A stretch of 62,228 nt of DNA, counting the filler, from Sluysia triapertura (lineage: Eukaryota), in the NCBI GenBank assembly GCA_046118255.1. It is 5 parts of 5 records of this genome, joined end to end, with 100 filler letters (N's around TTAATTAATTAA, not from the genome) between each part and the next. Parts side by side here need not be neighbours in the genome. Positions count along the whole stretch, not along the records: positions 10,983 to 26,507 come from JBJNIA010225905.1; positions 26,608 to 38,685 come from JBJNIA010141724.1; positions 38,786 to 51,237 come from JBJNIA010094448.1; positions 51,338 to 62,228 come from JBJNIA010191907.1; 1 more part is not named here. One strand, 5' to 3'. The notes below the pieces were generated by a model. The model was given only the letters and a program-made list of their open reading frames with translations, did no database searches and was not told the origin of the DNA. Position numbers and translations under genes: made by a program. Positions 12,046-59,807 of this stretch are shown piece after piece (positions within the stretch are counted from its first letter, which is position 1; every line of letters begins with the position of its first letter).

Positions 12046-12203
12046 TGTTGGGGTAAAAGGCCTAAAAAGTGCCAAGTAGTATAATTCAATATATTAAAAA
12101 TAAAATTGTTAGACGGGGCTGATAGCTCAGTGGTAGAGCGTCGACTGCGCAGACAGAGGTCACCGGTTCGATCCCCGGTCAGTCCATTTTATGAAGTCTA
12201 ACA
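12046..12203 (+). mobile_element. tRNA-containing TGTT...AACA mini-element (solo-LTR-like), copy 1
   Basis: Starts tgttggggtaaaaggcctaaa and ends gtctaaca. tRNA-like 12116-12186 with A box TAGCTCAGTGG, B box GGTTCGATCC and TTTT. Flanks ctat/ccat (3 of 4). Confidence 0.8.
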
Positions 12204-12426
12204 CCATACACTAACTGGACAATCCCAACGTAATATTCTTTCATAGACTTATAAATCTGTTGTTTTGATAGATTGAGAACCTACAGTATTAATTAGAAAA
12301 CAAAATAGTTAAAAACTTTATAATTCAAAAAGGAAATATAAAGAAAGTTTTTATAATTGAAAGAATTTAGAAAAGTGAAAGTTAAATAACTTTAGATTAA
12401 AATAGTTGTCATAGAGATGTTGCGTT

Positions 12427-12427
12427 A

Positions 12428-12496
<69 letters not shown>
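12427..12496. repeat. (AAT)n microsatellite
   Basis: Direct read. Confidence 0.95.
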
Positions 12497-12497
<1 letters not shown>

Positions 12498-12659
12498 TAA
12501 GGATAAATCCTAAGGACGATTAAGGAAATATAGTATAAATGATTCAGTTTTATTGCATTGATTAAGTTATTAGGAAATTGTCAGTATTTGTTATATTAAG
12601 AAGACAGAAAAAAAATAAAAAACTGAGAGATCTTAAGGTGAATTCACTCCAATAAGTTA

Positions 12660-12818
12660 TGTTGAAGTAAAAAAAAGCCTAAAGTGCCATTTAGTACAAA
12701 TGAATATAATGAAATAAAATTGTTAGATGGTGCTGATAGCTCAGTGGTAGAGCAATGGAACTGCACAGCGATGGTCCCGGGTTCGATCCACGGTCAGTCC
12801 ATTTTACGAAATTTAACA
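12660..12818 (+). mobile_element. tRNA-containing mini-element, copy 2 (more decayed)
   Basis: tgttgaagtaaaaaaaagcctaaagtgcc...gctgatagctcagtggtagagc...gggttcgatcc..cagtccatttt..aaca. No clear TSD. Confidence 0.75.
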
Positions 12819-13362
12819 ATGAAAATATTTATAACAAATTATATTATTGCAAATCTCGCAGTTTTAATTTCTTCCAAATTGCATGTTAATTGTCACTTTT
12901 GGTAATTTTCTATTGTTATCTCGCACCAGAAGTGTTTACAGGATGGTATTTCTCTCCTCCTCACTTCTTTACTCTACTCCAGAACGTTTGATTTCCATGA
13001 TTTAAAGTTATTTGGTCTGAAAAGAAAGTAGCAGCGAGTTATTTTGGCACAGCCAAAAATTACAAATTTCAGAAATTGCTAGTTATTTATAAAATTATTA
13101 TCAATGAACAATTACTTCTCAAAAATTATTTTATGAATCTATTGCTCATAAACAAATGTTAAATGAGACAATCATTTTTTGAACAAAGGCATTACATTTT
13201 TTTGTAAAATCCAACACCTTTATTCTAAAATTTTAATCATTATTATAGGTAAATTTTTGAGTATTCAAGTTAACTTTAAGTTAAGAGACCATGTTGCTAA
13301 GTTTAATTCGAATGATTGTGTTTAAATAATATGAATTATTTTTTAAAAATTTCACCTTAATC

Positions 13363-14201
13363 ATGTTGAACAGTTTAAAAATACCTGAATTTTTATTGAA
13401 ATTAAAAAAGTTGGTTGATTCACCAGAAACAGATCACTTGATAAGATGGAGTGAAGTAGATATATTAATAGTCATTTTATCATAAGTTTAGAATGGAGAA
13501 AGTTTTCTTATTAATGATGGACAAGCTTTAGCTAAAGAGTATTTTCCGTTATTATTCAAACATAAGAATGTTTTTAGTTTCGTCAGACAGCTAAACATGT
13601 GTACGTTTCTATATTATTACAATATTTATGTTTCTAATTAGACGGTTTTCATAAAATCAATAGGGTTGATTTCGGTACGAATAGAAATAATTTTGATGAT
13701 TCAGAATGGAGTCATCGCTATTTCAGACGCGGAAGATTGGATTTAATTAAACGAATTCAGCGCAAAACATCTTCACTAAATGAAATAGTTATTAGTAATA
13801 TATCAGATAAAGATGCAAATGAAACTTTAAATTGCAAATTAAATATAATGAGATCGACAATTAATGCATTGAAAGAACGTGACATGGAAAATAAAAGTCG
13901 GCTAAGTCATTTAGAATTGAAGAACTCAGAATTAAGAAATACAATTTCTCACATACAATACCTTGTGGATTACAATAAAAACATGTTAAATAATGTTAGT
14001 TAATTTTGATTAAAAATAAAACAAACAATTTAAATTTTAATGTAATTTTTTATTTAGCTTTTCAAATCTAATTTATATTCCCCATCGATCCTTGTAAATC
14101 AGTTTAAAGATAAGTTTCAGTTATCTTTACCAGGTTGTAGCAGTCCAACTACGATTGATATACGAAATAATAAAAGTATAGAATACATTACTCATCGGTG
14201 A
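13363..14201 (+). CDS. HSF: Heat shock transcription factor (HSF DNA-binding domain plus heptad repeat), about 232 aa, 4 exons: 13363-13455, 13492-13600, 13642-13994, 14058-14201
   Basis: Spliced translation MLNSLKIPEFLLKLKKLVDSPETDHLIRWSE/NGESFLIND...FKHKNVFSFVRQLNMY/GFHKI...EWSHRYFRRGRLDLIKRIQRK, then a coiled coil. GT-AG introns of 36, 41 and 63 nt keep frame. A donor at 14198 could add a short fifth exon ending at 14303. Confidence 0.93.
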
Positions 14202-14899
14202 GTTTTATTAAGTATAAATTATTTTTTTACCGAATCACTCATCAATTTAAATCATTTATTTTATAAGTTTATCATCTATTTATAAAATAGTGGAGTTTCG
14301 TGAATTCAGTTTTGTTTTTACTCCACATAATTTATACTTGGGACTATTGCTTTTTGAATCTTAATTCGATATTAAAATTTTGTTTTGTTTTAAGAAATAT
14401 TTCTATTAGGTATGAGTTATCTTTTCAACATTGTAGCTCAAAAAATTTATCTTAAATTTTTTCATAATGCAATTGAGCATAAAATCCACAATTGAATATC
14501 AAAATATAATTGCTAATGTACAACTAGAATTAATTTTATTCTATTTCTTACTCTTTAGTTGCATTTTTCACAGTAATTGTAACTACATCATAGTTAATGG
14601 GTAAGTTTATCCTTATGCAGAAGCTTACATAACAATAATTTGAAAAATAATAATTTTAGGTTTTGAATGTATCAAAATTTTTAAAAAATAAGCATTTAAA
14701 TGCATACCGAGTTGTAACAATTTTCTAAATAATGAAAATAAATATACTTATGAAATATTAAATACTAGTAGTAAAACTTCATTAAATACTAAGATATCGA
14801 AATTTACAACGAAATATTTAGTTTTTGATCGTAATCACAAAAGTTCTTGTTTTCTCTGTATTAGGTTGTTAAATGACAAATATAAAAATATAAATATAC

Positions 14900-16150
14900 A
14901 AATTCTAAACATAGTTCGTCAATAAAATAACCCTATCTAGCCCAAGTATTGCCATTTTTACATCGATTTATTCGCATTTTATGTCTTGTAAGAAATGTTG
15001 CATTGAACGAAGCCAGTACTAATTTGAGATGTACAGAATTTCCAAATTAAATTTTGTTAACATGCTACGAGTGGCTATTAAAGTACGAGTTCCTTCGTGA
15101 AGGAATGTTATACCTTTTCCATAGATCAGTGTTGGCCGTATTTTAACATTTTCTGATGTAACTGCGTTATTAAATGGTACCGTTTCACCAATTTTCAATA
15201 ATTCAAAATGTATAATTTCAAACACAAAAGAGCCTTTTTGACTTCAAGTCGATTCATCTTTCATCTTCTCAATAATTCAGTTCAAAAAGGTTCAATACCC
15301 AATGCAATTGCGAATCCTATAAACTTTGTTATGCTAATTTTAGTATATCTAGCACATTTTAGTAGTTTTAAATGATTTAAAATTGTATGCATCTTTCTAT
15401 ATTTCGAGGGCATTTTAAATTTGGGTAACTCTTACTCTATAATGTATCCCTTTCTGAATCGAATATCTTACATAAACTTAAGGTGACCAGATTTTTAGTT
15501 GGGCAAAGCGGGGAAGTATCAACAAAAATTTTCATACAGAATAAAAATAATGTAATATTTTTTTATTTTTAACATAAGGCTTACCTTAATTTTCTATGGT
15601 AAGTAGGAGATTTGTAATTAGCACGCAGTACGAACACTAAGTGTATCATCTGAGAGACAAATACAAAAAGCAATATGTTAGTCGTCGTAGCTCGTAGGAT
15701 TCTTAGAACGCAAAACAATGATTTTCATAAATATAAAATTTAATTTAATTCTAAAAGTCGGGACAAATTGAAAAATCGGGACTGTCCCGCCAAAAGCGGG
15801 ACGTCTGGTCACCTTAAGCATGCGGGGGATATGAAGTATAGTGTTTATTTTTATATAAAATCTTCTGTGGGGTTCAAAAGTAATGTTAAATACTTGCCTC
15901 ATACTACCATCGTTAAAATCCTTAGAACTCACAGTTTCTATTAAATTACGGTGCGACATGATCTGCTAAATCTAAAGTAGATTTTTTGCATTTTGTACAG
16001 ATATTTCGTAACAGTTCCTTTAATTGTTTATTAATTAAGAAGTTCACTCTAGATTTGAATGGTCCAATACCATTTTATCAGTTGCATTCGCTTTGAAATG
16101 TAAAGTTTTACAAGACAACCCATAATTGTTTTCAGCGGTTCTACGAAGAT
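14900..16150 (-). pseudogene. Decayed ORF, possible paralog of the 18230-19249 gene, interrupted by a hAT-like MITE
   Basis: ORF pieces at 15678-15959 and 15019-15225. The tail STGFVQCN...LGLDRVIL resembles the frameshifted tail CCGFMICN...YGHGQIIF of the 18230 gene. Confidence 0.4.
15479..15816. mobile_element. hAT (Blackjack-like) non-autonomous element
   Basis: 13-bp TIR TAAGGTGACCAGA / TCTGGTCACCTTA with subterminal CGGGAC repeats. No 8-bp TSD seen. Confidence 0.75.
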
Positions 16151-18229
16151 TTTATTTTAATTATCCTTTTTTCTAATTTTATTTTATCTAGAATTCTAAT
16201 GAAATAAATTTTAACTAAGTTTAAAACCCGCAAAATATAGGGATGATTAAATCAAAATTAAAACAGTCCGAAACAAAATACTACAAAACAATGTAAACAT
16301 CAATTTTATAACATGTATAATGGCAAATAAATCTAACATAAAACTGGAACAATAATTTTTTTGTACTTATAAATTTGCCACTTGGATTGCGGTTTAATAT
16401 GTGTGCTTTATTAGAACTTAAAATGACTGACGTTCAATTGAATCTCGACAGTTTAAATCAACCTGAATCGGTTTAAAACGTTGATAAAGTTATGAAATTC
16501 ATCATTAGGTTTCATGTAATAATAATTGTGTCTTAAGTACGGGAATCACTGGTTGGATTATGAACCATTGAATTAAAATCATAACTCATTTGTACCTAAG
16601 AGCATTCACCGAATTGATTGTATTAAATATGTAATTTTTGTTTATTTCACAATTTTTGTCATAATTATACATAAAATACATAAGTAGAATAAAATAATAA
16701 CAATAATACAGGTGGATAATAATAATTAATAATGATAATAATAAATAATAATGATAATAATATCGTACAAATAATAATTTTGAAATAAAACATAATAATT
16801 TGCTATTTACGAAAGTAATTATATAATTTATAAAATTTAAAATAGTGATATAACAATAATATAACTATCCTTTAAAAGCAATGTTGAATTTTAGATAACA
16901 ATGTCGCGAGAATAAGTTAAGTTGTGTTGTGATATTTGACAAATATTTCTGTCTTATGTATGTTATTTCTACAAGGTTGAGTTGAAGTTTGTTTAAATTT
17001 TTTTTGAAAATTATCCTTCAAGGTTGGATTAACCAGACATGTATAAGCTATTTATTTACTTCAAAATCGTGATACGATTCAACGAGTACTACGTTCCGGA
17101 AGTTATGTAATTTGTAGTTACCCGATGAAAATTTTTGAAACCAAATTTTCATCATTTCAAAAATACATTTGCCATTTCTCTTCCATTTCTGTCAACAAGA
17201 TACAAGCTAAAAGAGTTCACGAGTTAAAACCTATAATTTGAATGAACCAATGTTTGTGATAGTTCTGTAAAATTTGTAATATTACATATTTTAAAAATCA
17301 TATTAGGAAACAAATGTTAGACTTAGTGAAATAGTATAGTGAATGCAGAAAATTACATAAAAGGTTGTTATTATTTGCGTCGTGATACTATTTGGTGCTT
17401 TCAGTTTTTCGAATAAATATTAGATATCAATTAAAAATATTTCACGCCTTTATAATAATAATTTTCATCAATAGAATCACTTTAATTGCATATATATATA
17501 TATATATACTGATGCGACTTTATGATTCTCATTTATATATTTTTGCAATAAATTTTTAAAAATTGGGTTAGTTTCATAAAATAAGATAAACTACAAATAT
17601 TTGTATTAATATTATCTTGTAGGATAATGTCTGAGAACTGTGTACAGTAGAATAAAATAAAAGCGAAAACTTAATGTGAGTTCACCAACGTACTGGACTT
17701 GCCAGTTAGGGACAGCGTTGAATTTGGAATCAAGATAAGTGGAGGTTATATAAACTTTGTTAATTGCCTAACTAATGAGCAAACTTCTAATGAGTAGTAT
17801 TTTAATGGGATTTCTGACACTGAAATTTAATTAATATATTTTAATGAGATCCTTAAATTGAACCTTAAAATTTTTAATATAGTGAATTTAATTAGGTTCT
17901 TAAACCGACTATGGACGTGGGTTTAAGGTTATAAACTAAAAAATTGAATTTTAAAAAGATTTTAAGTATTTGTTCAAGTTTTATTCTCTTTAAGGGCTTA
18001 ATTTCATTAGGAACGTCCATTTTTGAAGTTGGTCTAAATTTAATAAAAATAAGGAACATAAAAGAATTTGTTAATTTATCAAAAGAATATGATGATTTAT
18101 ATTGTTTGTTAAAGTCTAGTTCGACCTTATCTGTAAAGTTTGTAATTATCTTTGTAAAATTAATACTTTTCTGTTTAAATATTAAAAAGAAAATAATATC
18201 CAGATTTATTGTGTAATTAGAACTTATAA

Positions 18230-19249
18230 TCACATTAAATTGAAAAAATAATTTGTCCATGACCATAGTCCATGAAACTCCCCGCAATATTTTCTGAAAA
18301 CCCGTCGTTGCATATCATGAATCCGCAGCACTTTAATAATGACTAAAAAATAATTATTTATATACAAAAATTTGCAACTTACATAATTAAATTTGATTAT
18401 AATTACACACATAAATTTACTAGATAACATAACGTGTTCATATAAGAACCAATTGTTGTCATGTTTCTGCATCATTATAGAAATATGTAATATCGACTGA
18501 TAAGGTAATACCCCGTATCCAAAAGACAAATTAACGAGGAAAATTTGAATAAAACTAAGATTATCCAGTGTATTGTTGTACCAACTTGAATCTCTTACGT
18601 TGCTTGCAATTAACTTATGAATAATGCTTTGAGAATATGGTTTCATTGAATTAACTTGAATAAACATTTTGGGTACATCATGATGTTTGAATCTGCAAAA
18701 AGGATCAGCACAATTTCTGTCGACAGTAAAGTAATTTGTTCGAACTTCCAAAATTTCCATATCTACACTTGCATAGCCAATGGTCCGAATTTCCAACACT
18801 TTATCATGGCCATTGGTACATTCCACAACACAAATGTACGAGCAACCATGTGGTTCTGAAAACATTAACTTTGCCAGCGAACCACCTTGTATCCAAACTC
18901 TACACTGAGCAAACGAACACCAAATAAACACAGAGTTGTTGGAATTGAAATCATCAAACGGATGGTTATAAATTGTCTTGATAGTCCATTGATTTTCCAA
19001 ATTCATTATTTGTTGATACTGTATAACATAAATAGAAAATGATGTTACTTGATTGATATGAATGTTACAAATATGTTGAACATTTAAAATATGATACCAT
19101 TTCGGAATTAAATCAGCATATTCCTTCATAGTGTATAAGAAACACATTAATGAGGTTGAAAAGTATTTATTTTCGTAACATTGTCTACTTAATTTCTTTT
19201 TAATAAATACTACATCTTCAGGATTGATATTTTGCTGTGACTGATGCAT
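18230..19249 (-). CDS. 339-aa orphan ORF (gene B) with a partial CCCH-like motif, NCADPFCRFKH
   Basis: Longest ORF in the window, ATG start, intronless, downstream of the palindrome at 19387-19440. Confidence 0.6.
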   Translation of the reverse strand: MHQSQQNINPEDVVFIKKKLSRQCYENKYFSTSLMCFLYTMKEYADLIPKWYHILNVQHICNIHINQVTSFSIYVIQYQQIMNLENQWTIKTIYNHPFDDFNSNNSVFIWCSFAQCRVWIQGGSLAKLMFSEPHGCSYICVVECTNGHDKVLEIRTIGYASVDMEILEVRTNYFTVDRNCADPFCRFKHHDVPKMFIQVNSMKPYSQSIIHKLIASNVRDSSWYNNTLDNLSFIQIFLVNLSFGYGVLPYQSILHISIMMQKHDNNWFLYEHVMLSSKFMCVIIIKFNYVSCKFLYINNYFLVIIKVLRIHDMQRRVFRKYCGEFHGLWSWTNYFFNLM

Positions 19250-19386
19250 TTCTTAAGATTTTGATAAATGATGTAATTTCTAACAACACTACTACTATTA
19301 GAAAAATTTTTAGTCTAGACGTTTGATTTTTAATTGTTTACTAATATTTTTAATTATGTCTGGCTTGTAATTGTTTCTGTTAGACT

Positions 19387-19440
19387 GCCCAATCAGAGTG
19401 TTTTAAAAAATATTGAGAATTATATGGACTCTGATTGGGC
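19387..19440. promoter_or_regulatory. Inverted CCAAT-box pair, putative bidirectional promoter
   Basis: Perfect 13-bp inverted repeat GCCCAATCAGAGT-N28-ACTCTGATTGGGC. Confidence 0.6.
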
Positions 19441-20521
19441 GATGATAAAATTGAATCTTGACGATTGATAACAACACAACTACCGGCATCAGTGATGTCA
19501 TTCTAATGACAATTTTAATCATGTAAATAGTACTGATAACGGCGTAACTAATTTAATGATTTTACACAAAATTATTAAAATTATATTGTATAAATGATAG
19601 CAATAATGATAATAATACGACAATAAGGTTACTGTTATTATTATTGTCAAGAAATAAAAATAAAAATAAAATGCATAAATATTCCTTTTACTAAGAAAAA
19701 CACAAGATCTGTTCTATTATACTCTTTGACTTCTTACATATATAATACATAAAAGAGATAAAACTTGTGAAATATCGTGAAGAAACAACGATAGCGAGGT
19801 ATATGACGTCTCAGTTATCGTTGTTACTTCTTGTTAAGATAATGAATTGTTTAAAGCTGAATTATGTTTATTTCTAGAGATAAAAGCAATGGTTCGAGTT
19901 GTAATTGAAGTGAAGAATGTTAGCATAAATTGTTAAAACTTATTAAAGATTTACAGTTTAAAAACAAGATTTGTGTATTAGATAGAATGATTTGAAATGC
20001 TTGATAAAAGGTTGAAGTTATTTTAATTTTGAATGGTGATTACAAAATAAGTCTTAATATATTATAATGTTATTCCTAGTAAGTATTGAGTATGTGTATG
20101 TGAAGTGTGTTTTGGTTGGTGTAGTTGGTTGAAGGTTTTGATGTAATTGATCTATGTTTCAAGGGTTCTTGTTAGAGTTATTGGATAATGATATTATGCC
20201 TATGGTTTGTGAAATCTATGTTATGGTTGCGATTTGTTTGTTTGGGTATCTGGTGAATGAATGTTGTGAATTATTTGAGGTTAAATGTCAAAGTTTGTTA
20301 TGTTATGGATGGTTGACGTGTTGGTTAAATTGTTGATACATGTGAGTTGATGAGGTGTTGTAATTATCGAATATTATTTTATGATGTTGGTGTTGGTGTA
20401 GTTCGAAAGTAAAAGGTGTGATTATTGTGAAAATTGCATTTTAGTGAAATTTGATTTGTGGATATTAGATTTAGTATTTTGATCGAGTTTAAATTATGAG
20501 TGTTGGCCACTACACTCCAAA

Positions 20522-20860
20522 ATCAATGACATTGATAATGCACTTTTTAAGGCTAGTAGGGGATGGTTCGAAAAGTTTCGTAAAAGAAGTAATATTCATA
20601 ATGTAATTAGACATGGAGAAGCTTCGATTTCAGATCTCCAAGCCGCGGAAATATTTTAAAAAGTGTTTATAGAGTTTATTGCAAATGATGGTTATGTTTC
20701 ACAACAAGTTTTTAATTGTGATGAGACTGGACTTTTTTTGGAAACGAATGCCCAACAGAACCTTTATTACACAGGAAGAAAAATCAATGCTTGGACATAA
20801 GCCGATGAAAGAAAGGCTGACTCTTTTACTATATAGCAATGCAAGCGGAGATGCTAAAGT
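20522..20860 (+). pseudogene. Tigger/pogo (CENP-B-like) DDE transposase remnant
   Basis: FKASRGWFEKFRKRSNIHNVIRHGEA...*...QVFNCDETGLF(+1)WKRMPNRTFITQEEKSMLGHKPMKERLTLLLYSNASGD; one stop and one frameshift. Confidence 0.93.
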
Positions 20861-22578
20861 AAGGATAAAAGGCAAACGAATTCGTATATGAATTCTCTTG
20901 TGCCAGAGTAAAGGTCCCTGAAGATAAAAAAGAATCAATATTAATAGATAAACTAAAATTGATAGGTCCAAAATTAAGGACCTATGTTACATTAATCGAA
21001 GGCAATCAAAGCATTAATAAGTATATTTATGATAAAGATAATATTAATTATGTAAGTAATTAAGGGAATAAAAATATACAGGAGATAAAATCCCATAATT
21101 TATAAAAATAGAAATAAGTATAATTTTGATGATTATAATGATAATAATAGATTTACAAAAAAATTTAGAAATCTCTCAAATTATGATGCACATAAAAATA
21201 ACCTTACTAATTATGATAATAGATATAATATTTATAACAGATATAATAGCCACGTAGAGGTCACTCAAATAGTTTTAAGGGTAATCCAAACAATACGAAT
21301 GATGATAAACGAAATAATAATAAGATTAGGGGTTCAACAATAATAGAATAAGCAAGTATGGTGTATCTAATTATGAACAAAGACCAGCACCGAGTTGGCC
21401 AACTAATTCTAATATTAGCAATCAAAATAACCATAGAAATAGAAATAAAGTCCAAATCGGTATGATAGTAGTTTGAGTAAAGCACAACTAATATAGGAGA
21501 AATATGATATGAAAATTACACAAGAAATTGTATGAAGCTAAAACAAAATCCTAATAGGAAAGTGAGATTTAATGATAATAATAAGAGTGATAAGGAACAA
21601 ATAACTTGAAATCAAACAGATTACTATTTCAGAGATGGCGCCAATGAATACGAAGACGATTATCAATGTGAAGAAAAATCCAGAAGAAATGAGAATATCA
21701 AAAACAAATGATCAAAAGGAGACAAATTAGCAACGATGAAGAAGATGACAAATAATTAAAAATAATAACAGAAGAGAAAATGCAATGTTAAGAAAATTTT
21801 TTATAATTGGATTAGAATGTGATAGAAATCTGTTTATAAATAAGCAAGAAGAAGAACTGTTCATGAGCTATATGCATGACAAATAATTAGATTTCAGGTG
21901 AGATAAACAACGTAGTGGTCAACGGTAATGGAAGATAATCAAATAAAACTAAATCAAATAATTTGGAGTTTCAGTATAGGAATTCTATACAGTTTCTATA
22001 TTTAACTTGACAGCAACTAGTATATACAGGTACTTTGCAGTAAAACTACTTCTTCAATATTCTCGTCATAAGGGGTTTCTTAGAATTTCTTTTGCTGTAT
22101 CAATATTATGGATTGGTTCATTTGCTGTAGCACTTCCAATTACTTTTTGTCTTAAACATCATATCATTAAAGTTTCAGTTGAATTTTTGTACATTTAATA
22201 ATGCAGATTTTATTACTTGGTCATTTATCGGTTAATTTTAAATTCCGCCAATCATAACTATTGTTTTTATTGTGAAATAGTCAAAATAATTCACTAAAGA
22301 GCGTATAATAAAGAAACATCCAAAGCTGTTGAAATTAATAGTGTAAATATAAATCGTCTCAATAGTGATAACAGCAGTAATGATAAAGTAGAATGTGAAA
22401 CAATTACTCGTAAAACTAATAACGAACAAATTAAAGATGATATTGATTGTGATTTTGGTACTAATAAACTAGAAACTATTGTAGAAGAGTAGAGAAGTAC
22501 TAAAACCACTGAAAACTGATAAAACAGAAGTTCCCAAAGATATTCCACGAAATAATGTTAATAACAAAATGTTAACCC

Positions 22579-22732
22579 TGTTGGGGTAAAAAGGCCTAAA
22601 GTGCCATTTGGTAAAATTGACTATAAAATAAAATCGTTAGACGGGGCTGATAGCTCAGTGGTAGAGCAATCGAACTGCGCAACGATGGTCCCGGGTTCGA
22701 TCCCCGGTCAGTCCATTTTACGAAGTCTAACA
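22579..22732 (+). mobile_element. tRNA-containing mini-element, copy 3 (best preserved)
   Basis: TGTT...AACA with an exact 4-bp TSD, ACCC. Confidence 0.88.
22644..22715 (+). ncRNA. tRNA-like Pol III cassette, not a canonical tRNA
   Basis: Acceptor stem GGGCTGA/TCAGTCC plus A, D stem GCTC/GAGC, T stem CCGGG/CCCGG with TTCGATC loop, then TTTT. Anticodon arm is irregular (4-bp stem, enlarged loop). Confidence 0.75.
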
Positions 22733-24272
22733 ACCCCAAATAGAATTTCGGAAGAAATTCAAAAAAACAGTGTTGAGAATCTTACAAAAATAAGTGTAAC
22801 CTCACTTACACTCATTGATCAGGATATTGAATTTAAGCGTGAAAAACTTATTAAAATCGAGAATTCTTTAAATAAAAACATTAATGGAACAGATGACCGT
22901 AAAAATCAATTATTATATGAAGATTGTATTGTTTCTGAGGAAATTAAGAAAGAGCAGTCAGGAAAACCTATTAAGGAAAAAACTCATCAATCTGATGAAA
23001 CATTGGGGAAATTATGAAATTATTAAAGAAGAACACGATAAAACAATCGCAAGTATGATATGAGAGGAAATTGAAAATGAGAAATCTGTAGATAAAATAA
23101 AATGGAATCGATAGAACTGAAATCTAAAGAAAAAGATATTTGCATCGATAATAATAATTTTAAATTTACAAGTTAATTGCTAAAATTCAAAAATCTTAAA
23201 TGAAAATTTAAGTTTAAAATTTAAAAAATCAAAAAAGCAGGATTACATTCACTCTAAAAGTTTATTTTACAATAAATTCTATTATCATAAATAATGACAA
23301 CTGTTTCTTGACATATATGTGAAAATACTATTAACTTCAAAATATAGAAGATTTTGTAAATCATTTTAAAATGTTAAATTTTCTAAATCAAACTCGAACA
23401 TATATTAAAGCACAGCAAAAACTACTAACACGCTAAATTAATGAAACGTTAGAATCACAGTTTTAATTATTTTAAATATTTTTTAGAAAGTGTTTATGTA
23501 AATGTACTTCAATTACTCCATATATTTAACAATTTCGAAATGTATTTTTCATCAAATTATACAATAAAGCTATGAATTTTGTTTCTAATTTAAAATATTT
23601 CACAAAAAACCAGGTGTTTCTTTACACAATTACAGTAAAAATCAACTTTCAATTTTTAATATCAAGCACCTCTTACTTTTATCACATTGCACCAAGTAAA
23701 AGGACAAATCTCTATCATTTTCGAGTAAACGATTCCATTATCAATTTTCTAATTTAGCCACACAATTCTCAGCACCTGTCTTGGTTGGTGCTAAATTTCC
23801 TACACAAATGACAAACTTAATATTCCATTTCCTCTTGATATAATATTATTTTATAAAAACTATTATTTAATGCCATTATTATCAAAACCGAGATCTATTA
23901 ATTATAATAAATTGACATAACAAATAATACTTCTTTCTTGATAAAAGTTGTTATCTTTGTTTTGTCAGGATAATTAATCAAGTCAGGATACAGATAGAAA
24001 TTTAGAATTATAAATTATCTTAACTCAATTAGAACTACTAGTTTTAATGTAATCATTTTATTTAATATTTTCTAACTTAATCAAAACAAAAATTACAATA
24101 AAAAAAATCAAACGCTCATGACAAATTTAATTAATTAATTAATACAAAAAAATTATTTATAAAATTCTTTTAAATAATTTTGATATTAGTTTATAAAAGC
24201 AAAAAATGTAATGAGAAAAGTAATAAGAAAATCTACGTCATTGTAATCATTGTATTTTGTCTATCGATCATA

Positions 24273-24275
<3 letters not shown>

Positions 24276-24328
<53 letters not shown>
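24276..24328. repeat. (AAT)n microsatellite
   Basis: Direct read. Confidence 0.95.
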
Positions 24329-24331
<3 letters not shown>

Positions 24332-25332
24332 TAATACACAAGTAATCTGAAAATAGAAAAATGTATAAGGAAATCAGTTTAAATATTAAAACACAGCATC
24401 AAAATATTCACAGCCAAATATCAAATAAATAATGAGCATTTGAATGCTATATCATAATTATTAAATAAAAATGAAAACAGCAATTAAATTAAAATTAATA
24501 ATTCTACTGCCATTTACAAAAATTCAAACAAAATTGCTTTATAAATTCAACTTTGTTATATGATATAAACAGAAATATAATATCGTCATATAAAGTTAAA
24601 TATCAGTGAATCCGTAATATATATATTATATTTTTATAATTTACACTATTTTAAAACAAAAATTTCTTTGTAATACCAGACATTTTCTTTAATTAAAAAC
24701 TAGAATAAAAACATAATATTTTCTCATCTATAAACACATCCAAAAATCGAGTTTATTCAAAAAATTACCTTTAATATTATTTTTACTTTTGAATTCAATT
24801 TTAATTTCATAGTAATACAAGGAAAATCGAATATTTTTCATTATATAATAAAATCATAATCATTTGCGGTTTTATGTAAACAAGTTGTATGTTTTTTTTA
24901 GTTATTTTAATAATATTTTCTAAATACTTCTTATTTTTACATTCAGAAAATGCAGAATATACTTTAATGATTATTTAAGAACAATTACTTATACCTAAAG
25001 AGTATATATATTATTTCACATAAACAAAACATGGTGAATATAGTACACAATGTGTTTAAATGTTTTAAATGGCAATAAAATTTATATGTCTAGTGAAGTA
25101 CCATTACTTTTTATCTTAAAATTACAATATTAATATTTAATTTCTAATAAAGTTTTATTTCAAATATAGCCTTCATTAATTAATTTGTATTCGATATTGA
25201 TTTCTGAAAATCCAATCTATTTCAGGATTATCATACATTATAAGCATATTAAAACAATTTAGGCAAAAAATAATAAGACCTAAGTGCAATAAAACTTATA
25301 GTTTCCAAAATAAGATTTACCATTACGCTTAC

Positions 25333-25515
25333 TGGATATTTCCATATATATTTTGTATATACTAATATATCCGAGAATAAGAAAAATATTCGCTTTTTAT
25401 CTGTTTTGCGGCATACTTTTATTAGCGTACCTTCACCAACAAGCATTCTTTCGTCATTTAATAGTGGATATTCCTTAAAATCATTACCATCTTCATCGTT
25501 ATCGTCATATGTGCA
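25333..25515 (-). CDS. Exon encoding the N-terminal part of a PLEKHF/Phafin (or FGD)-type PH domain; possibly a fragment
   Basis: cag|...YPLLNDERMLVGEGTLIKVCRKTDKKRIFFLFSDILVYTKYIWKYP|gtaagc, 183 nt, phase 0-0. Resembles the Phafin motif RVLIGEGVLTKxCRKKPKxRQFFLFNDILVY. Confidence 0.7.
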
Positions 25516-25715
25516 CTGGATTATTTTTAAGGAATTAATAAACCAGCTAGAGATAACAACTGATTAATTGTGTTAAGTCTGCGTTTAGTTGAATCTTGCA
25601 TGACATGTACATAATTAACAATTTTGATCCAATCTTTGCATTTGTCGGCTTTCCTCATCTCTTTCCTCTTGATTATTAGAGTTATGTGAACCATCATTAG
25701 AAGGACCATTATCTG

Positions 25716-26272
25716 TTATTGTTGGAGAAATAGGAGATAAAGATTTTCTTGACAAGCTCGATTCATAACCAATATTATAAATGCATTTCTAATTGATAAT
25801 TTTTGCATATTATTTGAATTTGTAAATAAGCGAATGTCACGTCTTAAATTTTTCCATTTATTATAGCAATGTTCTACTGAAAAATCTCCATGTTCATTCA
25901 TTTCTTTACCGATACTAATCCATACTGACTTATGAACTGATTTTCTTTTAAAATCACTAATTCTCTTTTCAATACAATCCAATAATGCATGTACTTGAGA
26001 TGGATTCCAATGAACTTTTTTATTAGAATTTCCTTTCTCATCAGCATTTGGTCTCAATGTATTGCAACTAAAATTTGTCTCAGATTCTGGCGATGATGTA
26101 GATGTTTCATAAATTAATTGCTGTTTTGATTATCTAATTTGACGTCATAATTTACATTCATTTCATTATCTTCGTATTCATCAATATACGTTTCTCCGCC
26201 ACTACTAGTACTCAATTGACTTCTGCGTCTTTTATGGGACGAAATCGACGATACTACGTTTTCATCAACCAT
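25716..26272 (-). CDS. Myb/SANT-like (trihelix/MADF-type) DNA-binding protein; exons 26272-26156 and 26120-25716; 3' part probably frameshifted
   Basis: KVHWNPSQVHALLDCIEKRISDFKRKSVHKSVWISIGKEMNEHGDFSVEHCYNKWKNLRR. A 35-nt GT-AG intron keeps frame with the ATG at 26272. Confidence 0.75.
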
Positions 26273-26507
26273 TGTTAATATTTATTTTACAAATAAAATA
26301 ATTATAATATATTTTTAAATATATTTTAATAAACAATACAGTATTAGATGAATTTTAATAATTAAATTTTATTAATATTACATTTCACTGAGATTTACAC
26401 ATGCATAAATAAATCATAATTCACAAGAAAAATACATCCTATACTTTTAACAGAAAATATAAAAGTCGTGTAACCCCCTTATAATAAAATTGATAACATA
26501 GCTATAA

Positions 26508-26607
26508 NNNNNNNNNNNNNNNNNNNNNNNNNNNNNNNNNNNNNNNNNNNNTTAATTAATTAANNNNNNNNNNNNNNNNNNNNNNNNNNNNNNNNNNNNN
26601 NNNNNNN
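26508..26607. other. Artificial contig linker
   Basis: N44-TTAATTAATTAA-N44. Confidence 0.97.
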
Positions 26608-27099
26608 ATAATATTTAAAAACTATAATTATAATTAATAAACAACTGAGTTTAAAATTCACTAATTTATATTTTATTGTAGAAATGTAAGAACTATTAAG
26701 TTTTATTTAAAAATACATTAGGTGTTTTCGTTTAATTTAACCTTTGAAAACATTAATTAGTTTAATATTTCAATGTCTTTCATTTTTTTCAATTAATCAT
26801 TTGTATTTTATTTTTTAAATCTTTCTAGAAATACTTTCAGAATCATTATTATATTAGATATAATATTTATTTGGTGATTAATTGGTTTTAAAGTTTTAAA
26901 TTTGAATTTTAAATTTAAATTTATAAAGATTTGGTTAAAATTATCTTTATTATTATAAAACAGCAAATAAATTAAATTTATTTATAAATGAAAAGAAAAT
27001 ATCATAATAAAACACAAATTTATTACGGATACATATGGATATAAATTTTATAATAAATGTTATCAAATGTTTTATAATTTTATAATAAATATTATCAAA

Positions 27100-28407
27100 A
27101 GTCTAATGATACGAAGATTTATTAAAGAAATGATCAAAGTAAGATAATTAATTGTATATAATAAAAATAAAAATTTACTTTTGATATTAAATTGTTTCTA
27201 AGAATGTACGGTTCCACATGGTCTTTTGATTGAATCGTGTTGATTGTAAAGTTTCTGTTTGGTTCTTTAAATCTCAATGTTTCGAAGAGCTTATTTATTT
27301 GATCTATATGTTGGATGTAATTGGCGTTTCCAATTCCGCTGTGGTCAATTTCATTGATGCCATGATAATATCTGCATCTTTTACCAAACTTCAGGCATAT
27401 CCCTAATTCAATCGTCTGGGAAGTACACTGTGCTAAACGTTCGCCTTTAACAAAAGTTGAATTTGAACTAATACATGTTGGTCTAGTCATATCTTTTCTT
27501 TGATTATTTGAATGGATAATTGCATTAAATTTGTTCTTTTGTTTGCCTTTATTCAGCATACCTTGTTGCAGTTGGAAAGATAGGATTCCTTTGAGCATTC
27601 GTCACTTTACTTGAGATGATGGGATAATTGTATCATCATCTGTCGTTTCATCATATAAATTAACGTGAATACTATTTCTTACAATTATGGTTTGAACATT
27701 AAACTTAACCGTCCAACATGAAATATTATTTATTGTAAATGATAAATTTCTATGTAACACGGGATGCACTAATTGTACTTCACATTCCCTTCATGTTGCT
27801 CTAAAGATTTATGAATGGGCAAAAACATAACATTTAAAGTTTGTTTGTTGTTTCATCAGTAACATTCTGACTAAAAGTATAAATATGATTAATCATAACG
27901 AATTTAAATTCAGTTTGTTTTACATCTAAAGTTGCATTAATTGCAAATATGATTGTTCCGATATTAACGTAATAGGTAACGTGATTTTGGATACTAATAA
28001 TAAAGATTTCAACTTTATTTGTATTGATGAAGGTAATCTAGAACGACTGCAGTGAGTGTTTCTTTCTAATTTTTTGGAATCATTTGGACATAATCATAAA
28101 ATTTAACAATCCAACATTAAATTAAGAACATTTAACTTATCCCAATCTAAATTTGAATAAATTAATTTCGACTCGCGATCTACCAATGATATTACAAAAT
28201 GTCTTGTATCACTGTGATCTCCACAAATAACCACAACAGTTTCCTCGTCTGGATATACGCGACTTGATAAAATTTTAACAATACTACACTTAATTTTTTG
28301 TAAATCATCATTTACTAAAAAAGCTGTGGTATTATTTTTAATAATTTGATTAAAATCACATGCATTATTTATCATTTTTTGTAACTCTTTCTTTTTCTGG
28401 TTAACAT
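27100..28407 (-). pseudogene. Gene B copy with a TTP/ZFP36-like CCCH finger (27362-27427)
   Basis: ORF pieces 28103-28375 and 27134-27598; CTSQTIELGICLKFGKRCRYYHGINEI. Confidence 0.7.
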
Positions 28408-29262
28408 AATTTTTATAATTGTGAATGGTAATTGTCTAGTCGAATTGTGATTGGGCGTCCTATGAGTAGCAACTATTATAATATAAAAATAGAATTGATT
28501 GGATGTCCAATCACTAACTAGAAAGTATCAATTGGTAGTTATGTTGTGAAAATGAATGCCTGTCACCTCACCATGCAGTAAAAAGGAAATGACAAATGAG
28601 AAATGGTGACAAGTAATTTCAATCCATGTGGCTAGTAACAGCAAAATTCATTTTTGGTAAAAATGTTCTGTCTGGACTGACAGACATAAAATTAATGTAT
28701 ATATTATTGATAATAATTAAATTGATAACAATAAATAATAGTAATAATAATTATTATAATAAAATGGCGATACAATAAGAATAATAGTAATAATAATATA
28801 AAAGTGTAAAAGATAAAAAATAAAATGCATAAACCTTAATCTTTTAATAAAGTTCTCTTTATCTTATTTCTTTATATGAACTTTATTTTCTTAGAACATA
28901 TGAAATCAAATGAAATTTTATTTGAATTAAAATGCTTAGAATTGTTTTAAAGTGTGAGTTTAATGTTTTTCAAGGTGTTAATGATTGAGTGTTGAAGGAT
29001 TGTGAACTTAAAATGTTTCAGATTAATTTTGAATTGTATGTTTGGTAATTTGAGATGTAAACTGTGATTCTAATGTTGTGAAATTACGAAATGTACCTTA
29101 ATATAATATTTAATATATATAATTTTAATGTTATGAGATTGTGGGTTTACAATGCTTTGGAATGTAAAAACAAAAATTTTAATGGACCTGAAAGGTAAGA
29201 TGTGAGATGTTAATAATTGTAATATTCCGTGTAAATAAAGGTTGAAAAGGTTAGCCACCACA
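27100..29262 (-). mobile_element. Divergent gene-pair element, copy 2
   Basis: Terminus CCACCACA at 29255-29262; G/T-rich gene A about 28900-29250; aaaataaaatgcataaa box near 28817; inverted repeat GTGATTGGGCGTCC / GGATGTCCAATCAC at 28447-28514. Confidence 0.6.
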
Positions 29263-31329: not shown

Positions 31330-31620
31330 AGTTTAGATTGGTGTATGATAAGATTTTTGAAGATATAAAGATCGCATAAAGGTTATTGATGATATGAAAG
31401 TGTGTAAGGATGTGAAGATATAATAGTTGCACGTATCTATTGATGTTGTAAAGATTTTCAAAAGTATGTTATGGTTTGTAATTTTGGATAGTTGCGAGTT
31501 AAAATTTACCGTGTAATTAAATATGAGATAATAAAGGAGGGCACTCCTTGTTGCATAATTCTTTATTATAGGCATATACCTTAATGTTAAAAAAACAATT
31601 TTAGACCCTACCACCCATAA
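31330..31620 (+). repeat. G/T-skewed gene-A-like fragment
   Basis: Same compositional skew, preceded by an A-rich spacer and ending in ccaccc. Similarity judged by eye only. Confidence 0.3.
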
Positions 31621-38685: not shown

Positions 38686-38785
38686 NNNNNNNNNNNNNNN
38701 NNNNNNNNNNNNNNNNNNNNNNNNNNNNNTTAATTAATTAANNNNNNNNNNNNNNNNNNNNNNNNNNNNNNNNNNNNNNNNNNNN
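38686..38785. other. Artificial contig linker
   Basis: N44-TTAATTAATTAA-N44. Confidence 0.97.
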
Positions 38786-40119: not shown

Positions 40120-41340
40120 GAATTATCCCATTGTCACTGTCGGCATTCGTTTTCTCAAATAGTTACTGTCACTCACAATTAGAACACCATCATTAGACGA
40201 GTCGTCACAAGATCGGATTACTGGAACTACTACTAGTCGAGTCGCGACAACTGGGAATAAGATACTGAAACAATGTCCACTTAGACTCGGGTTCAAGTTG
40301 AACATAAATATTATCGATTGTCCAATTGACAAAGGACTTGCTCCAGTACACGAATACTGGATGCGAGGGTTACTGGCGGTAATACAGTGTTATCGATCTT
40401 TCATACCGTCGCTAGGGTACAGAAAGGCAGAGAAAATGTGGCTCTGATAATATTAACAACGATGTTTGATATAAGTTATACTTGGTTCGAAAATTGATAA
40501 GAAATTTCATTATCATTATAACTTAGCCTAGAGTCACGTTGAACAATTATGGAATGTTAAATGCGAGGTAAATTGATAAGTTTATTATTTATGTTACGGG
40601 ATAAGTTGGAACACAACACGGAGAACTTGATTAACCTACTAACTTGTCGCACAATCTTCTCACAGTATTTTTGAAGAACGTGCACCAATAATCCATACAG
40701 ACAAAAATACGTATCGCGCTCGATTCCACATACCACACGTCCTACTCGTTGTGCAAGTATGGTTACGTCCAATCCGGTCACCGAATATGTTAGGTGCTGT
40801 AATTAGTAATCGCTGATGATATAACCTATTTGAATTCACTTTATCCATCCGCAGTATGAGATGTGTGCCAGATGTCTTGATGTAGGCCTTACATACGACC
40901 TTAAATTAAAATGTAAACTTTCCTTTGATTATTTTTGTTTGTATAGTAAACAAAATTGTTTATTGTTATTGCTTCTGAATACAAAAGAAAATGTTTTGAA
41001 ATAAACAAACTTTGAAGAGTTTCATTAAAAAAGGCCCCCTCTGACCATTGACCATTCACATAATTTCTGACATGCGGCGCCACCGCCTCCTCATCTGTAT
41101 GATAAAACTTGACTCGTGATGTGACTGGATCCTCAAGAATGTGTTCCACTTCTGTGCAATTCGAGCATCATTTCATTTTCATCTTAATATGAATGGTCAT
41201 CACCGAGTCGCTCGGGAGATTCCCCATTTAATAAACATTGTCCCTGGTTTCACATTTGGAATTATTGATTGTGCAACTCATTCCGAACTTGCGACCCAAG
41301 TCTTGGTTTAGCCATTTCCATCAGAGCGTCTTTGTTTATT
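40120..41340 (-). pseudogene. Decayed DNA-transposase-like region
   Basis: HILEDPVTSRVKFYH...QWSEG and LVVVPVIRSCDDSSN resemble the PIxLxxDDTSGN motif of CACTA/Plavaka-like transposases; many stops. Confidence 0.4.
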
Positions 41341-55130: not shown

Positions 55131-58100
55131 AAGAAAATTCATAATATTTGAAATGAAAGTCTCACTAACTTTTATCGTGAATATACATCATCTGAGCAGT
55201 AAAATCAGTATATAGTATTTTTTGGAATATATATAAAAATAAAAATTGAAAAATAAAATATAATTATAAAATTAAAATTAATATTACAATTAAAAATAAA
55301 ATAAATTAATGTAAAAATTATAAATTTAATAAAAGAAATTAATAGGTAAATTTTAATTAAAAGTTAATTTTAATAAAAGAAACAAATGTTAACAAAAAAG
55401 GTATTCATTTAACACATTGAGCCCGGAGTCCCTGTTGCTCCGTACTTGAAATTGATACATAAGTTAACAAAAAAAGATAACTGATAATGGCAATGATGAG
55501 GACTGATACAACAAAACAAAATGTTACGTATTTGGTTAATATAATTTATCAAATTAATTTAATTTCCTACGAGATTTTGTGGCTTGGAGTTTTATAATTT
55601 ATGAATTGTGTCGAGTACAATGAATTAATAATGTGTATATTTATTTGGTGTAATATAATTGCTGGTAAATTTAACGGTTAATAATTTAAATATGTTTTAG
55701 TTTAGTGTTTTTGTATTGCGTAAGTTGAAGTAGTGATTTGTAGAATTGTGAGTTGTGTGAATTAATATATGAGAACGACAATGGGATTACCATGCGTTGT
55801 GATGATGATGGTCTTTTCCATTTTTTTAAATTGATTTATTACCTTCTAAAAATTAACCTGTACCTGGCAAATTATATTTCAATATTAAAAGTACATATAA
55901 ATAATTCATAATTGATGTATTAAAACAAACACTAAGTTCCAGCTTATAGAAAGCTTACAGATAATACAATATTGAATAATCAATTTATGAAAATAACAAT
56001 AAATTAACAGAAGAAATAATCTCTTTTTACAACACCCGTCATTACTATATATTATGTATCACTTTTTTATTCTTGTTCGAAAAAAAACAATTTAAAAATT
56101 TCATCGTACTTTGCGAACAAATAAAAATATGTCTTATTGTGTCGAGATTGTAGAGAAGTGATCGTTTTTAAAATTGCCCTTATATCTTAAATACAAATGA
56201 TACAGATTCTGTAAGACCTTATTTTAACGACGTTTGGGAATTCGATAATAATAATAATAACCACCAAGATAAGACCATTTTCTACCTACATATTTCGATA
56301 AATCTGAAACAGAAAGATAAATTTAATCTGTAGTCTAAGTTTTTCGCAATGTCACTAAAATTCTTAGGTTTGAGAACCACGAAACAAATTCCTATACTGG
56401 CTTATTGAAGAGTACCAACAGGAACTATGACCACACGAATGTTTAAGGGCAATGATCACTTCATTTTGTCTGCTTTATCTTTATTGGTGGTTAAAAAAGT
56501 ATGAAATACCTAGCACATCATTTTATTACTATTAAAATTCACAGATTATGCATCTAATATTCTAGTAGTTCGTTCAATATCTTTAACTCGTTTAGGCATT
56601 TAAAATTATTTAAAATACTTTATATATTTAAACATTTTTAAACTGTACACAAAAACAATAAAATAAGATTACAATTGCAAAACAAATGTAGCACAAACAA
56701 CCCTTTTAAACATAAATTAATTGTATTCAAGTTGTATAAGACATTTTGTCTGCTAACTTTCAATAATGTAATCTTTATTGTGCTTGTTGCCCACAACTGT
56801 ACTACATAAGATATATTCGCATATTAATTCGAGGATTCAGAAGATGTTTTCTGATTAATATAATGTATCACAATTGTATATACAGAAGATAATTTTTTAT
56901 TACCGAGTTGGTGAAATAAAGATAGACATTTAAATAAAACATCTAAAACTGTGTTTTCAATCAATATTAATAATAATAAACAGATAACAATGAACAAGAT
57001 TATAGTATGATTGTTGTAGAAGTCATCAGTGTTTCGATTGTTGTACGTATTTTGTTGAGTTTTTAATAGTTGTTAGATTAAGTTGGAGTTTGTTCCACCA
57101 CAACAAACCTAAAGTTTCTCCACGAAATTGCTTTCTATGGTGTTTATGGTCTTGATTTTGTTCTCCAAGGCACATTGTAGCTTCTTTTTTAATTTGAAAT
57201 ATGAAAGATATTGATTAATTTCTGTTGAACAATGCATCGTTATTATTTTAGACTTGAATAATGATTAGAATATTCTTCGAAACCGATTAATGATACATCT
57301 TCGGAAATGACTATTTTTTATTAGTATAATGTTCCAAAAAATAATAGCGGCAAAGCTTAAAAAAGATAAATGAAACTACTTTTGTCTGTATAATTTTTGA
57401 AAATGACAAATTCTATTTGAAATTGTTATTTCAGTTTTTAATAATTTTTGTGTAAACAAATTATTAAAATAAATATTATCCGTTATGTAAATAATCTTTT
57501 GTTATATTGAAATTATACTATTTTATTATGTAAATACAATTGTTTTAATATTAAGGAAGATTTCAATAAGATCAGTATTTAAAAATTGTAATATTAATTT
57601 TTATTATTTTGAGTTGTTAATTCAATGACAGCCAAATTGTTTTTGTCAAATTCGGGTGAACTAATGGCTAACATATTAAGCAGCGCTTGGCATTTGATAC
57701 ACTAATTTGTTCATCTCCTCGAGCAGAACATGCACAAAGTCGTACACGACACAAAAGTTAAAAATAACACAAAAACATAAAATTATTGTTCAGTAATAGA
57801 GTCATCATTGTCGGATATTTTATAAATATCAACATCATCAAATTCATCTTTTTCGAACGCTTTTAGAACGTCTGCTGACTTATACTTCTTGGTTAGTAAA
57901 ATTTAAATTTCCACAACGTAAACAAACAAAATAAACGCTAAAATCTACATGAAAACAACGTTTCCTGCATAAATTATGACATAGGAAGGAAGCAGTTGTG
58001 ATATGTCAAGAAATGTACTCGAAAGTTTTGCTGAAAAACTGTTACTTTTACAATAATTAATCATATTTCTATATAAAACTTAATATTTTGTGCTGCAATA

Positions 58101-58379
58101 TTTTAATTCAATAATACAGTGTTAATAGCTTTATTTTCAAAGTACATATGATAAAATATAAAGTTTATTTTGAAAAAAAAACCAAAAGATTAATTATTTC
58201 TAGCAAGCAAAAAAAAAATTATATTATTAAAATTTTTTCATTCATTTATAGATATTGTTTTTCAAAGTCAAGTACTTTTATTTAAATTATGTATTTATTG
58301 TTTAATCCGACTAAAGCGATGATGTAATTGCTTTTAGAAATGAACAATTCTTCAGTCATTTTTGTCATTCGAAAAGCAA

Positions 58380-58620
58380 GAACGAACTGTACTTTCAAAA
58401 GGTGTATTGTTAAATGATCTAAAATTTACAATGTTTTGAAGGTTTTAAGATATAGAGTGTAAGAAATGGTGTGAAATGTTTAAGGATTATATGATTTAGA
58501 CTGGGAATTATATTACGAATAATATTAACTTTGACAAAATGTGATATTTCAATAATAAGGTTAGTTATAACTTGTATAAATTTTTGATTTATTTCTAAAA
58601 TATCATATTTTTTAATTTGA
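58380..58620 (+). repeat. Gene-A-like fragment in the GPCR intron
   Basis: Reverse complement caatacaccttttgaaagtac resembles 51981 caattacctttttagaatgtac and 61604 caaccaccttttcaacgtac. Confidence 0.4.
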
Positions 58621-58678
58621 TTCGATAATTTTATTATATTCATTCTTTAATTGGTAATATATTAAAATTAAAACTTAC

Positions 58679-59162
58679 CAGATAATGTCCAAGCAATTCC
58701 TATCATTACAGCACATCGTTTACGACTAATTCCATAAGTTAAAGGACTTCGAGTAGCCCAATAACGTTCTAATGCTATCATACATAAATGTAAAATGCTA
58801 GCTGTTGAACTTAACACATCGAAAGCATGCCATAAATCACACCACAATTTTCCAAATATCCACTTACCTTCACTTAATTCACTGAAAACAGCAAAAGGCA
58901 TAACAATGAGACCCATTAATAGATCAGCACAAGCCAATGAAACAATGAAAAAGTTGGTTATACTTCTTAATTGACGATATAATACCACTGCTGTTATAAC
59001 TAATAAATTTCCACAAATTGTAGTACACAACAATAAACTAAGAAATCCACCTAATAATACATTAGAAGTACTGAATTTTATGATATTTGTTATTAACTTT
59101 GTCGTATTATTAATATCAGATATCGGATTTGTTGGATGGTAAATTATTGGAACAGTGGCCAT
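58679..59162 (-). CDS. Biogenic-amine class A GPCR (invertebrate dopamine Dop1R2/octopamine-like), first exon, TM1 to TM4
   Basis: GNLLVI, TNFFIVSLACADLLMGLIVMPF, WIFGKLWCDLWHAFDVLSSTASILHLCMIALERYWA (TM3 Asp present). Donor G|GTAAGT at 58678. Confidence 0.93.
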
Positions 59163-59692
59163 GATTGCGATTTGTTTATAAAGTTTTCAATAATAGACAT
59201 AATTTATAAATCACTAAATCAACAACACAAAAAAAACAAAGAAAAACAATACAAATTAAAGATGATCTTTATTGAATAAAAATTTCAATCAAATATTACT
59301 GATAATTTGCTTTAACCAATTAAATTTGTAATATCAAATTAACAAATCAGATTAAGAAAAATTCATTATTTTTACTTTTTATATTATTATTATTACTATT
59401 ATTAAATAAACATGGAATGGCTACTGGATTTCGGACAAAAAATGGCCACTAATGAGTTAATAATACAAATTGTAATAGTATTATAATCGATTCTGTGAAG
59501 AAAAATTCAGAAATTACAGTTAATATTGAATCAATCAGTAAAACTAACCTTTCAATTACGAAACACCTTAAAATTATGTACCGTTTATATTTCAAAAATA
59601 AACAAACTACCTGAGAATGTTAAAAACTTTAAACAGTTTTAAAATATATATATATATAATTAAAATTGCAGAAAGGACCTACCGAAAATTAC

Positions 59693-59807
59693 TGTTAAAT
59701 GGACAGACCGGGATTTGAACCCAGACTTCCTTACCTTACAGCTGTACAGTTCGATGCTCTGACCACTAAGCTATCAGACCCGTCAATTATACTATCGTTA
59801 TTCAACA
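59693..59807 (-). mobile_element. tRNA-containing mini-element, copy 4 (115-bp subfamily)
   Basis: Minus strand: TGTTGAATAACGATAGTATAATTGACGGGTCTGATAGCTTAGTGGTCAGAGC...GGGTTCAAATCCCGGTCTGTCCATTTAACA. Exact 5-bp TSD ATTAC (59688-59692 / 59808-59812). Confidence 0.85.

Follow-up and report, generated by a model that had tools for sequence, protein, structure and literature searches.

Probable solo long terminal repeats with an internal tRNA-like cassette in Sluysia triapertura, and their likely kinship with Helenus

The window analysed here is a stretch of 62,228 nucleotides of DNA from Sluysia triapertura (assembly GCA_046118255.1), made of five parts of the genome joined end to end. It is AT-rich (22-34% GC per 2 kb) and carries exons of HSF, Myb/SANT and amine G-protein-coupled receptor (GPCR) genes. 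The subject of this report is a short dispersed element with a tRNA-like sequence inside, present in four copies that all begin TGTT and end AACA. Copy 1 (158 bp, 12046..12203) and copy 2 (159 bp, 12660..12818) lie on the plus strand. Copy 3 (154 bp, 22579..22732, plus strand) is the best preserved of the four and sits within decayed coding-like DNA. Copy 4 (115 bp, 59693..59807, minus strand) is a short variant with another type of leader, in which leader and tail are both shortened. The leader, cassette and tail measure 70, 71 and 17 bp in copy 1, 70, 72 and 17 bp in copy 2, 65, 72 and 17 bp in copy 3, and 27, 81 and 7 bp in copy 4. Over aligned columns only, the copies are 82-91% identical in pairs. 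No fifth copy was found in the window by nhmmer --max, the next match having an E-value of 3.9. All four have the TG...CA ends typical of a long terminal repeat (LTR) and fall within the ~100-320 bp size of Helenus LTRs.

Two copies are flanked by exact target site duplications (TSDs). That of copy 3 is 4 bp long (ACCC, at 22575..22578 on the left and 22733..22736 on the right, plus strand). That of copy 4 is 5 bp long and reads GTAAT on the element strand, or ATTAC on the plus strand, at 59688..59692 beside the 3' end and 59808..59812 beside the 5' end. The flanks of copy 1, CTAT and CCAT, agree at three of four positions, for which the chance rate is 9%, and copy 2 has no recognisable duplication. 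Four copies are a small sample, with one exact duplication of each length. Among 200,000 random pairs of window positions, 1.35% match exactly over 4 or 5 bp, and at least two such matches among four copies are expected by chance with P ~0.001. A sequence-only reading of this DNA had placed the four copies at these positions, with lengths of 115-159 bp, TGTT and AACA ends and the two exact duplications, and all of this is borne out. Its description of an internal tRNA-like part with a leader, a T run and a short tail also stands, with leaders of 27-70 bp. A T4 run directly follows the cassette in copies 1-3, but copy 4 has TTT only.

The cassettes lie at 12116..12186 (copy 1, 33.9 bits), 12730..12801 (copy 2, 32.1 bits), 22644..22715 (copy 3, 51.7 bits), all on the plus strand, and 59700..59780 (copy 4, 81 nt, minus strand, 40.7 bits). 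All exceed the Rfam tRNA gathering score of 29. An A box is present in every copy and a full B box in three; copy 2 retains the GTTCGATCC core and deviates at the last position. In copy 1 both boxes are intact and the T4 run comes next. Copy 2 has one mismatch in the acceptor stem and one in the T stem, and copy 4 has two acceptor mismatches and a longer anticodon and variable region. In copy 3 the acceptor, D and T arms are fully paired, the acceptor carries a G3-U70 wobble and A73, and the T4 run opens a 17-nt tail ending in AACA (22716..22732, plus strand). Its anticodon arm has a 4-bp stem and a 10-nt loop, and so departs from the 5-bp stem and 7-nt loop of a functional tRNA. ARAGORN recognises copy 3 alone of the four and labels it tRNA-???. 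The anticodon loops are unlike one another among copies. G3-U70 occurs in three copies; copy 4 lacks it together with a second acceptor pair. No two-sided changes were found in the acceptor stems of the four copies. Across these copies 87% of cells are paired, a value equalled in 38 of 500 shuffles and not decisive at n=4, and folding z-scores are weak (-0.4 to -1.8).

Within the element lies a shorter unit that the sequence-only reading did not describe. This core of 97-98 bp is framed by an inner 8-bp inverted repeat (TGTTAGAC...GTCTAACA) and provides a second TG start. In copy 1 it spans 97 bp (12107..12203, plus strand) and the repeat is perfect (TGTTAGAC/GTCTAACA). In copy 2 it begins at 12721, and one pair of the stem is altered on both sides. 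In copy 3 the repeat matches at seven of eight positions. The inner core has a leader of 9 nt. It may represent an older and shorter LTR that was later extended at its 5' side.

The wider family was followed in sequencing run X1, possibly the source sample, in which 0.77 of the words sampled occur. Contigs were aligned at 80% likeness to 22330-22980, the region of copy 3, and the features listed comprise six of 218 loose ends, 15 of 25 joints, 12 of 17 inserts and eight pieces. In all, 11,422 contigs align. Summed depth rises from 20-420 in the flanks to 98,000-2,480,000 across the element; contig depth does not equal copy number, yet the abundance of the family is plainly very high. The window has one copy of it per 15.6 kb. 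Among the loose ends listed, position 22732, the AACA end, has the most contigs: 274, with a median of 255 letters and a consensus agreement of 0.42. Beyond it lie unrelated AT-rich flanks. The 3' end is thus fixed family-wide, since these contigs leave the element exactly at AACA and enter unrelated DNA. A-rich tails, which would speak against the sequence-only reading, did not appear: no poly(A) follows AACA in the 274 contigs. At the 5' end, two of the eight listed pieces stop at 22579 and continue for 49 and 230 letters into other DNA; both are other copies, with 21 and 13 differing letters. Among the variants listed, none at a frequency of at least 5% falls in 22703-22732, the acceptor, the D arm or the T stem. 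Eight variable positions are listed inside the element, and four of them belong to the anticodon arm. A weak loose-end consensus has acceptor position 6 changed. At 22635, where copy 3 has C, T accounts for 702k of 809k depth. With the majority letter the inner TGTTAGAC is restored and becomes fully inverse to the terminal GTCTAACA, the state found in copy 1. A loose end of 172 contigs shows the leader type of copy 4 followed by a normal spacer, so that copy 4 has likely arisen by deletion within a second subfamily. No empty-site joint is among the joints listed. In a search of public runs, X1 is the sole holder listed, and no RNA run is among the holders listed. Exact pattern scans for further loci gave no hits in metagenome contigs, viral contigs or prokaryote genomes.

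The fixed TG and CA ends, the two exact TSDs, the A and B boxes, the T4 run and the abundance favour one reading. The four copies are probably solo LTRs of a new family of non-coding LTR retrotransposon, a terminal-repeat retrotransposon in miniature (TRIM) of the Helenus type, likely moved by Gypsy elements. The sequence-only proposal of a solo LTR with an internal RNA polymerase III (Pol III) promoter fits both the anatomy and the family-wide ends. By analogy with Helenus and Cassandra, a life cycle can be outlined. (i) The full element would consist of LTR, primer-binding site (PBS), internal region, polypurine tract (PPT) and LTR. (ii) Pol III would start at the cassette of the 5' LTR and in part read past the weak T4 stop. 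(iii) The transcript would end at the T4 run of the 3' LTR, the cassette thereby acting as the R repeat. (iv) Within the particles of autonomous Gypsy elements, a host tRNA bound to the PBS would serve as primer for reverse transcription. (v) Gypsy integrase would join the CA ends, giving duplications of 4 bp and sometimes 5 bp. (vi) Recombination between LTRs would leave solo copies. In planarians, Gypsy accounts for more than 90% of LTR elements, according to the available portion of a preprint (10.64898/2025.12.11.693146).

Several observations weigh against this reading. The window contains no two-LTR element, PBS or PPT. TGG is absent within 11 bases of the 3' end in all four copies, and no G-rich purine tract lies upstream of any of them. 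No two-LTR joint or internal region is among the joints and inserts listed from X1. Exact TSDs flank only two of the four copies, and that of copy 4 is 5 bp long, as against the 4 bp given for animal Helenus in the available part of Kojima's 2024 report (PMC10886601). No reverse transcriptase, integrase or Ginger domain was found in the 151 window frames scanned (14 + 137); of the 172 frames listed, the 22 shortest lay outside the scan. Copies 1 and 2, 456 bp apart, were considered as one two-LTR element and rejected, because they are 84% identical, share no TSD, PBS or PPT, and are separated by an AAT microsatellite. A 15-nt T-arm motif of copy 3 recurs at 14 places in the portion of Kojima's sequence data covered, the 13 listed being all bivalve or brachiopod LTRs, but the motif is also generic tRNA-Ala sequence and is no proof of kinship. 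In favour of the reading, Table S1 of that report, as far as available, has by our count 30 Helenus families for which no internal part was determined.

A different origin is that the 98-160 bp unit is the entire mobile element: a tRNA-carrying miniature inverted-repeat transposable element (MITE) or LTR-only unit, cut and pasted, or integrated as DNA, by a Ginger-like transposase or an integrase and having no two-LTR RNA stage. TGT...ACA ends and TSDs of 4-5 bp are common to Ginger and Gypsy, and the TGTNR-type ends of Ginger1 and Ginger2/TDD resemble those of the copies (Bao et al. 2010, PMC2836005, as far as available). The framing of the core by its own inverted repeat, perfect in copy 1, would suit such a unit, as would the lack of an internal region in the window and the X1 rows listed. 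In two X1 contigs a copy's end is followed, after 3 or ~11 letters, by the core of another copy; nested insertion explains both as well. At the outer ends only 4 bp form a perfect inverted repeat (7/8 in copy 4), far short of the 40-270 bp of Ginger1 and the 50-180 bp of Ginger2. Ginger1 targets CCGG or CCGT, and the sites here are ACCC, GTAAT and CTAT/CCAT. The anatomy is also the same as that of the LTR in proven two-LTR Helenus families, as described in the available part of PMC10886601. Such an origin is therefore unlikely, and the integrase-moved MITE or Ginger option raised by the sequence-only reading fits poorly. No Pfam family matches the frames spanning copies 2 and 3, a result that applies to the solo units only.

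Still less probable is a tRNA-derived short interspersed nuclear element (SINE), copied by the enzyme of a long interspersed nuclear element, in which the TG...CA ends and TSDs would be coincidental or secondary. The very high abundance and internal A and B boxes are what such an element would have. X1 depth also falls toward the 5' leader, from 1,353k at 22642 to 809k at 22635, 432k at 22630 and 257k at 22614, and this could mean copies shorter at the 5' side; contig depth is again not copy number, and other leader types, such as that of the 172 loose ends resembling copy 4, lower the depth too. Yet all four copies have 27-70 bp upstream of the cassette, which would fall outside the element's own Pol III transcript, and the 5' end is not a tRNA head. 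The TSDs adjoin the outer TG, and the 3' end is fixed at AACA, in four of four copies and 274 contigs, with neither poly(A) nor a repeat tail. Duplicated genes of an ordinary host tRNA family, each with part of the flanking DNA, would explain the near-perfect cloverleaf of copy 3 but are very improbable, given the 10-nt anticodon loop of that copy, the differences among copies in that loop, the concentration of listed variable positions in the anticodon arm, the lack of matches to the acceptor motifs in a planarian tRNA table, and TG...CA ends with TSDs that fall outside the cassette.

That table, from Schmidtea mediterranea (PMC7962491, the portion available), was compared with the cassette by motif search. 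The cassette is similar to tRNA-Cys(GCA) in its D arm and where the anticodon arm begins, and to rows of tRNA-Ala type in its T arm and outer acceptor (G1-C72, G2-C71, G3-U70, A73). The four inner acceptor pairs differ from the Ala-type rows on both strands, and pairing is still kept; the acceptor motifs of the cassette have no match in the table as available. G3-U70 alone is the identity element of alanyl-tRNA synthetase, which ignores the anticodon (PMC8583063, in the part available). The rebuilt, fully paired acceptor with G3-U70 and A73, the variable anticodon loop, the A and B boxes and the T4 run invite a bold reading. The many solo LTRs in a flatworm might yield a retrotransposon-made mimic of tRNA, an idea also raised by the sequence-only reading, that is processed, charged with alanine and either anticodon-less or miscoding. 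We consider this doubtful. The cassette is likely retained mainly as a promoter. The self-encoded primer for reverse transcription that the sequence-only reading had offered finds no backing: allowing up to three mismatches, no site in the window outside the copies is complementary to the 3' end of the cassette, and none is reported for Helenus in the part of PMC10886601 available. In S. mediterranea ~4,100 tRNA-like loci are predicted and 1,372 kept (PMC7962491, portion available). Helenus-like repeats could be among the dropped or suppressor-type loci.

The host is a flatworm, as judged from the GPCR tree and the Myb/SANT matches. The top match of the GPCR exon is a fish protein of 1,008 residues (38% identity), and the next named match, Schmidtea mediterranea GCR001, has the highest identity (68%). 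A tree was built from the exon and 30 matches hand-picked from 120 listed, the fish protein being omitted; in it the exon clusters with Schmidtea receptors (support 86/90, not starred). Every named member of the wider clade (support 91/91) is a flatworm protein. The six best matches of the Myb/SANT exon include four named proteins, each from a flatworm. Within the flatworms the host is likely a triclad (planarian), a placement based on one gene.

Of the four copies, three share the orientation of a nearby gene and end upstream of its start, at distances of 1159, 544 and 530 bp. The starts are an HSF-like ATG at 13363 (interval 12046-13363) and an amine GPCR ATG at 59162 (interval 59162-59807). 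This placement may be chance in compact DNA. Upstream of copy 3, 20483-20990 holds a decayed piece of Tigger/pogo-like transposase (Pfam HTH_Tnp_Tc5, E 3e-5) with stops and frameshifts. The region 21980-23200 contains a GPCR fragment (7tm_1, E 3e-8) and then the coding-like, low-complexity DNA that hosts the copy; a stop-free frame of 150 codons (22565-23017) that crosses copy 3 matches no Pfam family. On the flanks of copy 3, the alignment of X1 contigs carrying several differences suggests that the insertion target may itself be multi-copy. Other repeats occur in the window. A dispersed pair of ~305 bp, 72% identical (51934-52237 and 61556-61862), is unrelated to the tRNA-like family. In a 61-bp pair on opposite strands, 84% identical (11872-11932 and 47026-47086), one member precedes copy 1 by ~110 bp. 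The inverted repeat at 9527-9653, perfect over 26 bp, with arms 75 bp apart and 50% GC, is possibly a small MITE. The longest frame of the window (18233-19252, minus strand, 340 codons) has a weak PRE_C2HC match (E 0.003), which suggests a gag-like remnant of a retroelement.

If the Helenus assignment is correct, Helenus/TRIMp3 reaches a seventh animal phylum, the fourth among lophotrochozoans. Whether lophotrochozoan Helenus had a single old origin or repeated origins, a question left open by Kojima, would then be testable. At the density seen here the family would swamp tRNA gene predictions of the genome, and it puts Pol III promoters near genes. Planarians are amenable to RNA interference, so that the promoter of a Helenus element could for the first time be put to a functional test in a related laboratory species.

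The closest known system is Helenus/TRIMp3, described by Kojima (2024, PMC10886601; the statements here cover the available text, tables and sequence data). These TRIMs carry a tRNA-like sequence in the LTR and are the counterpart of Cassandra. The sequence-only idea of a tRNA analogue of Cassandra is thus already published as Helenus, and such an LTR is not a new concept. Animal Helenus elements have 4-bp TSDs and Gypsy-like PBSs. Their LTRs measure 104-323 bp and full elements are shorter than ~1.3 kb. Solo LTRs are frequent, anticodons are mostly non-functional, and self-priming was not found. Pol III transcription and mobilisation by Gypsy are still proposals for the published families. 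The LTRs of bivalve, brachiopod and nemertean families have the same order of parts as the four copies and a similar size: a TGT start, a short leader, a cassette with A and B boxes, a T run, a short tail and an ACA end. LTR length within the published range, solo LTRs and an unusable anticodon are also shared, and copy 3 has the 4-bp TSD. Helenus-4_CVi has a 19-nt D-arm motif in common with copy 3. Helenus-2_TeGr shares 23 nt of the T arm with copy 3, as judged by eye across a line break; its LTR is the shortest published (104 bp), with a leader of 7 nt against 9 nt in the inner core here. Motifs specific to the present family have no match in the sequence data covered, although some could hide at line breaks. 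The flatworm host, the one 5-bp TSD and the second inner TG start are unlike published Helenus. Membership of Helenus is likely rather than proven. The published hosts belong to six animal phyla, and Platyhelminthes appear in neither Table 1 nor Table S1 as available. Kojima's screen covered relatives of known hosts only, so that flatworms probably lay outside it. The phylum is probably new as a Helenus host. No flatworm LTR bearing a tRNA was found in the literature covered, including the available parts of two planarian genome preprints and a meeting report, and a Repbase or Dfam entry is possible.

Other systems share individual features. Cassandra of plants and Ajax of nemerteans likewise hold a small-RNA-derived Pol III promoter and terminator within the LTR, but carry 5S rRNA in place of the tRNA-like sequence found here. 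The ta-TRIM of taeniid tapeworms (Koziol et al. 2015, PMC4558846, in the part available) is a flatworm TRIM with many solo LTRs. Its TSDs are of 4 bp in 52 of 57 cases and of 5 bp in five of 57, so that the two lengths found at copies 3 and 4 can co-occur in one TRIM. In the available main text of that report tRNA is mentioned as a primer only and the term 'polymerase III' is absent, whereas the S. triapertura family bears its tRNA-like sequence within the repeat itself.

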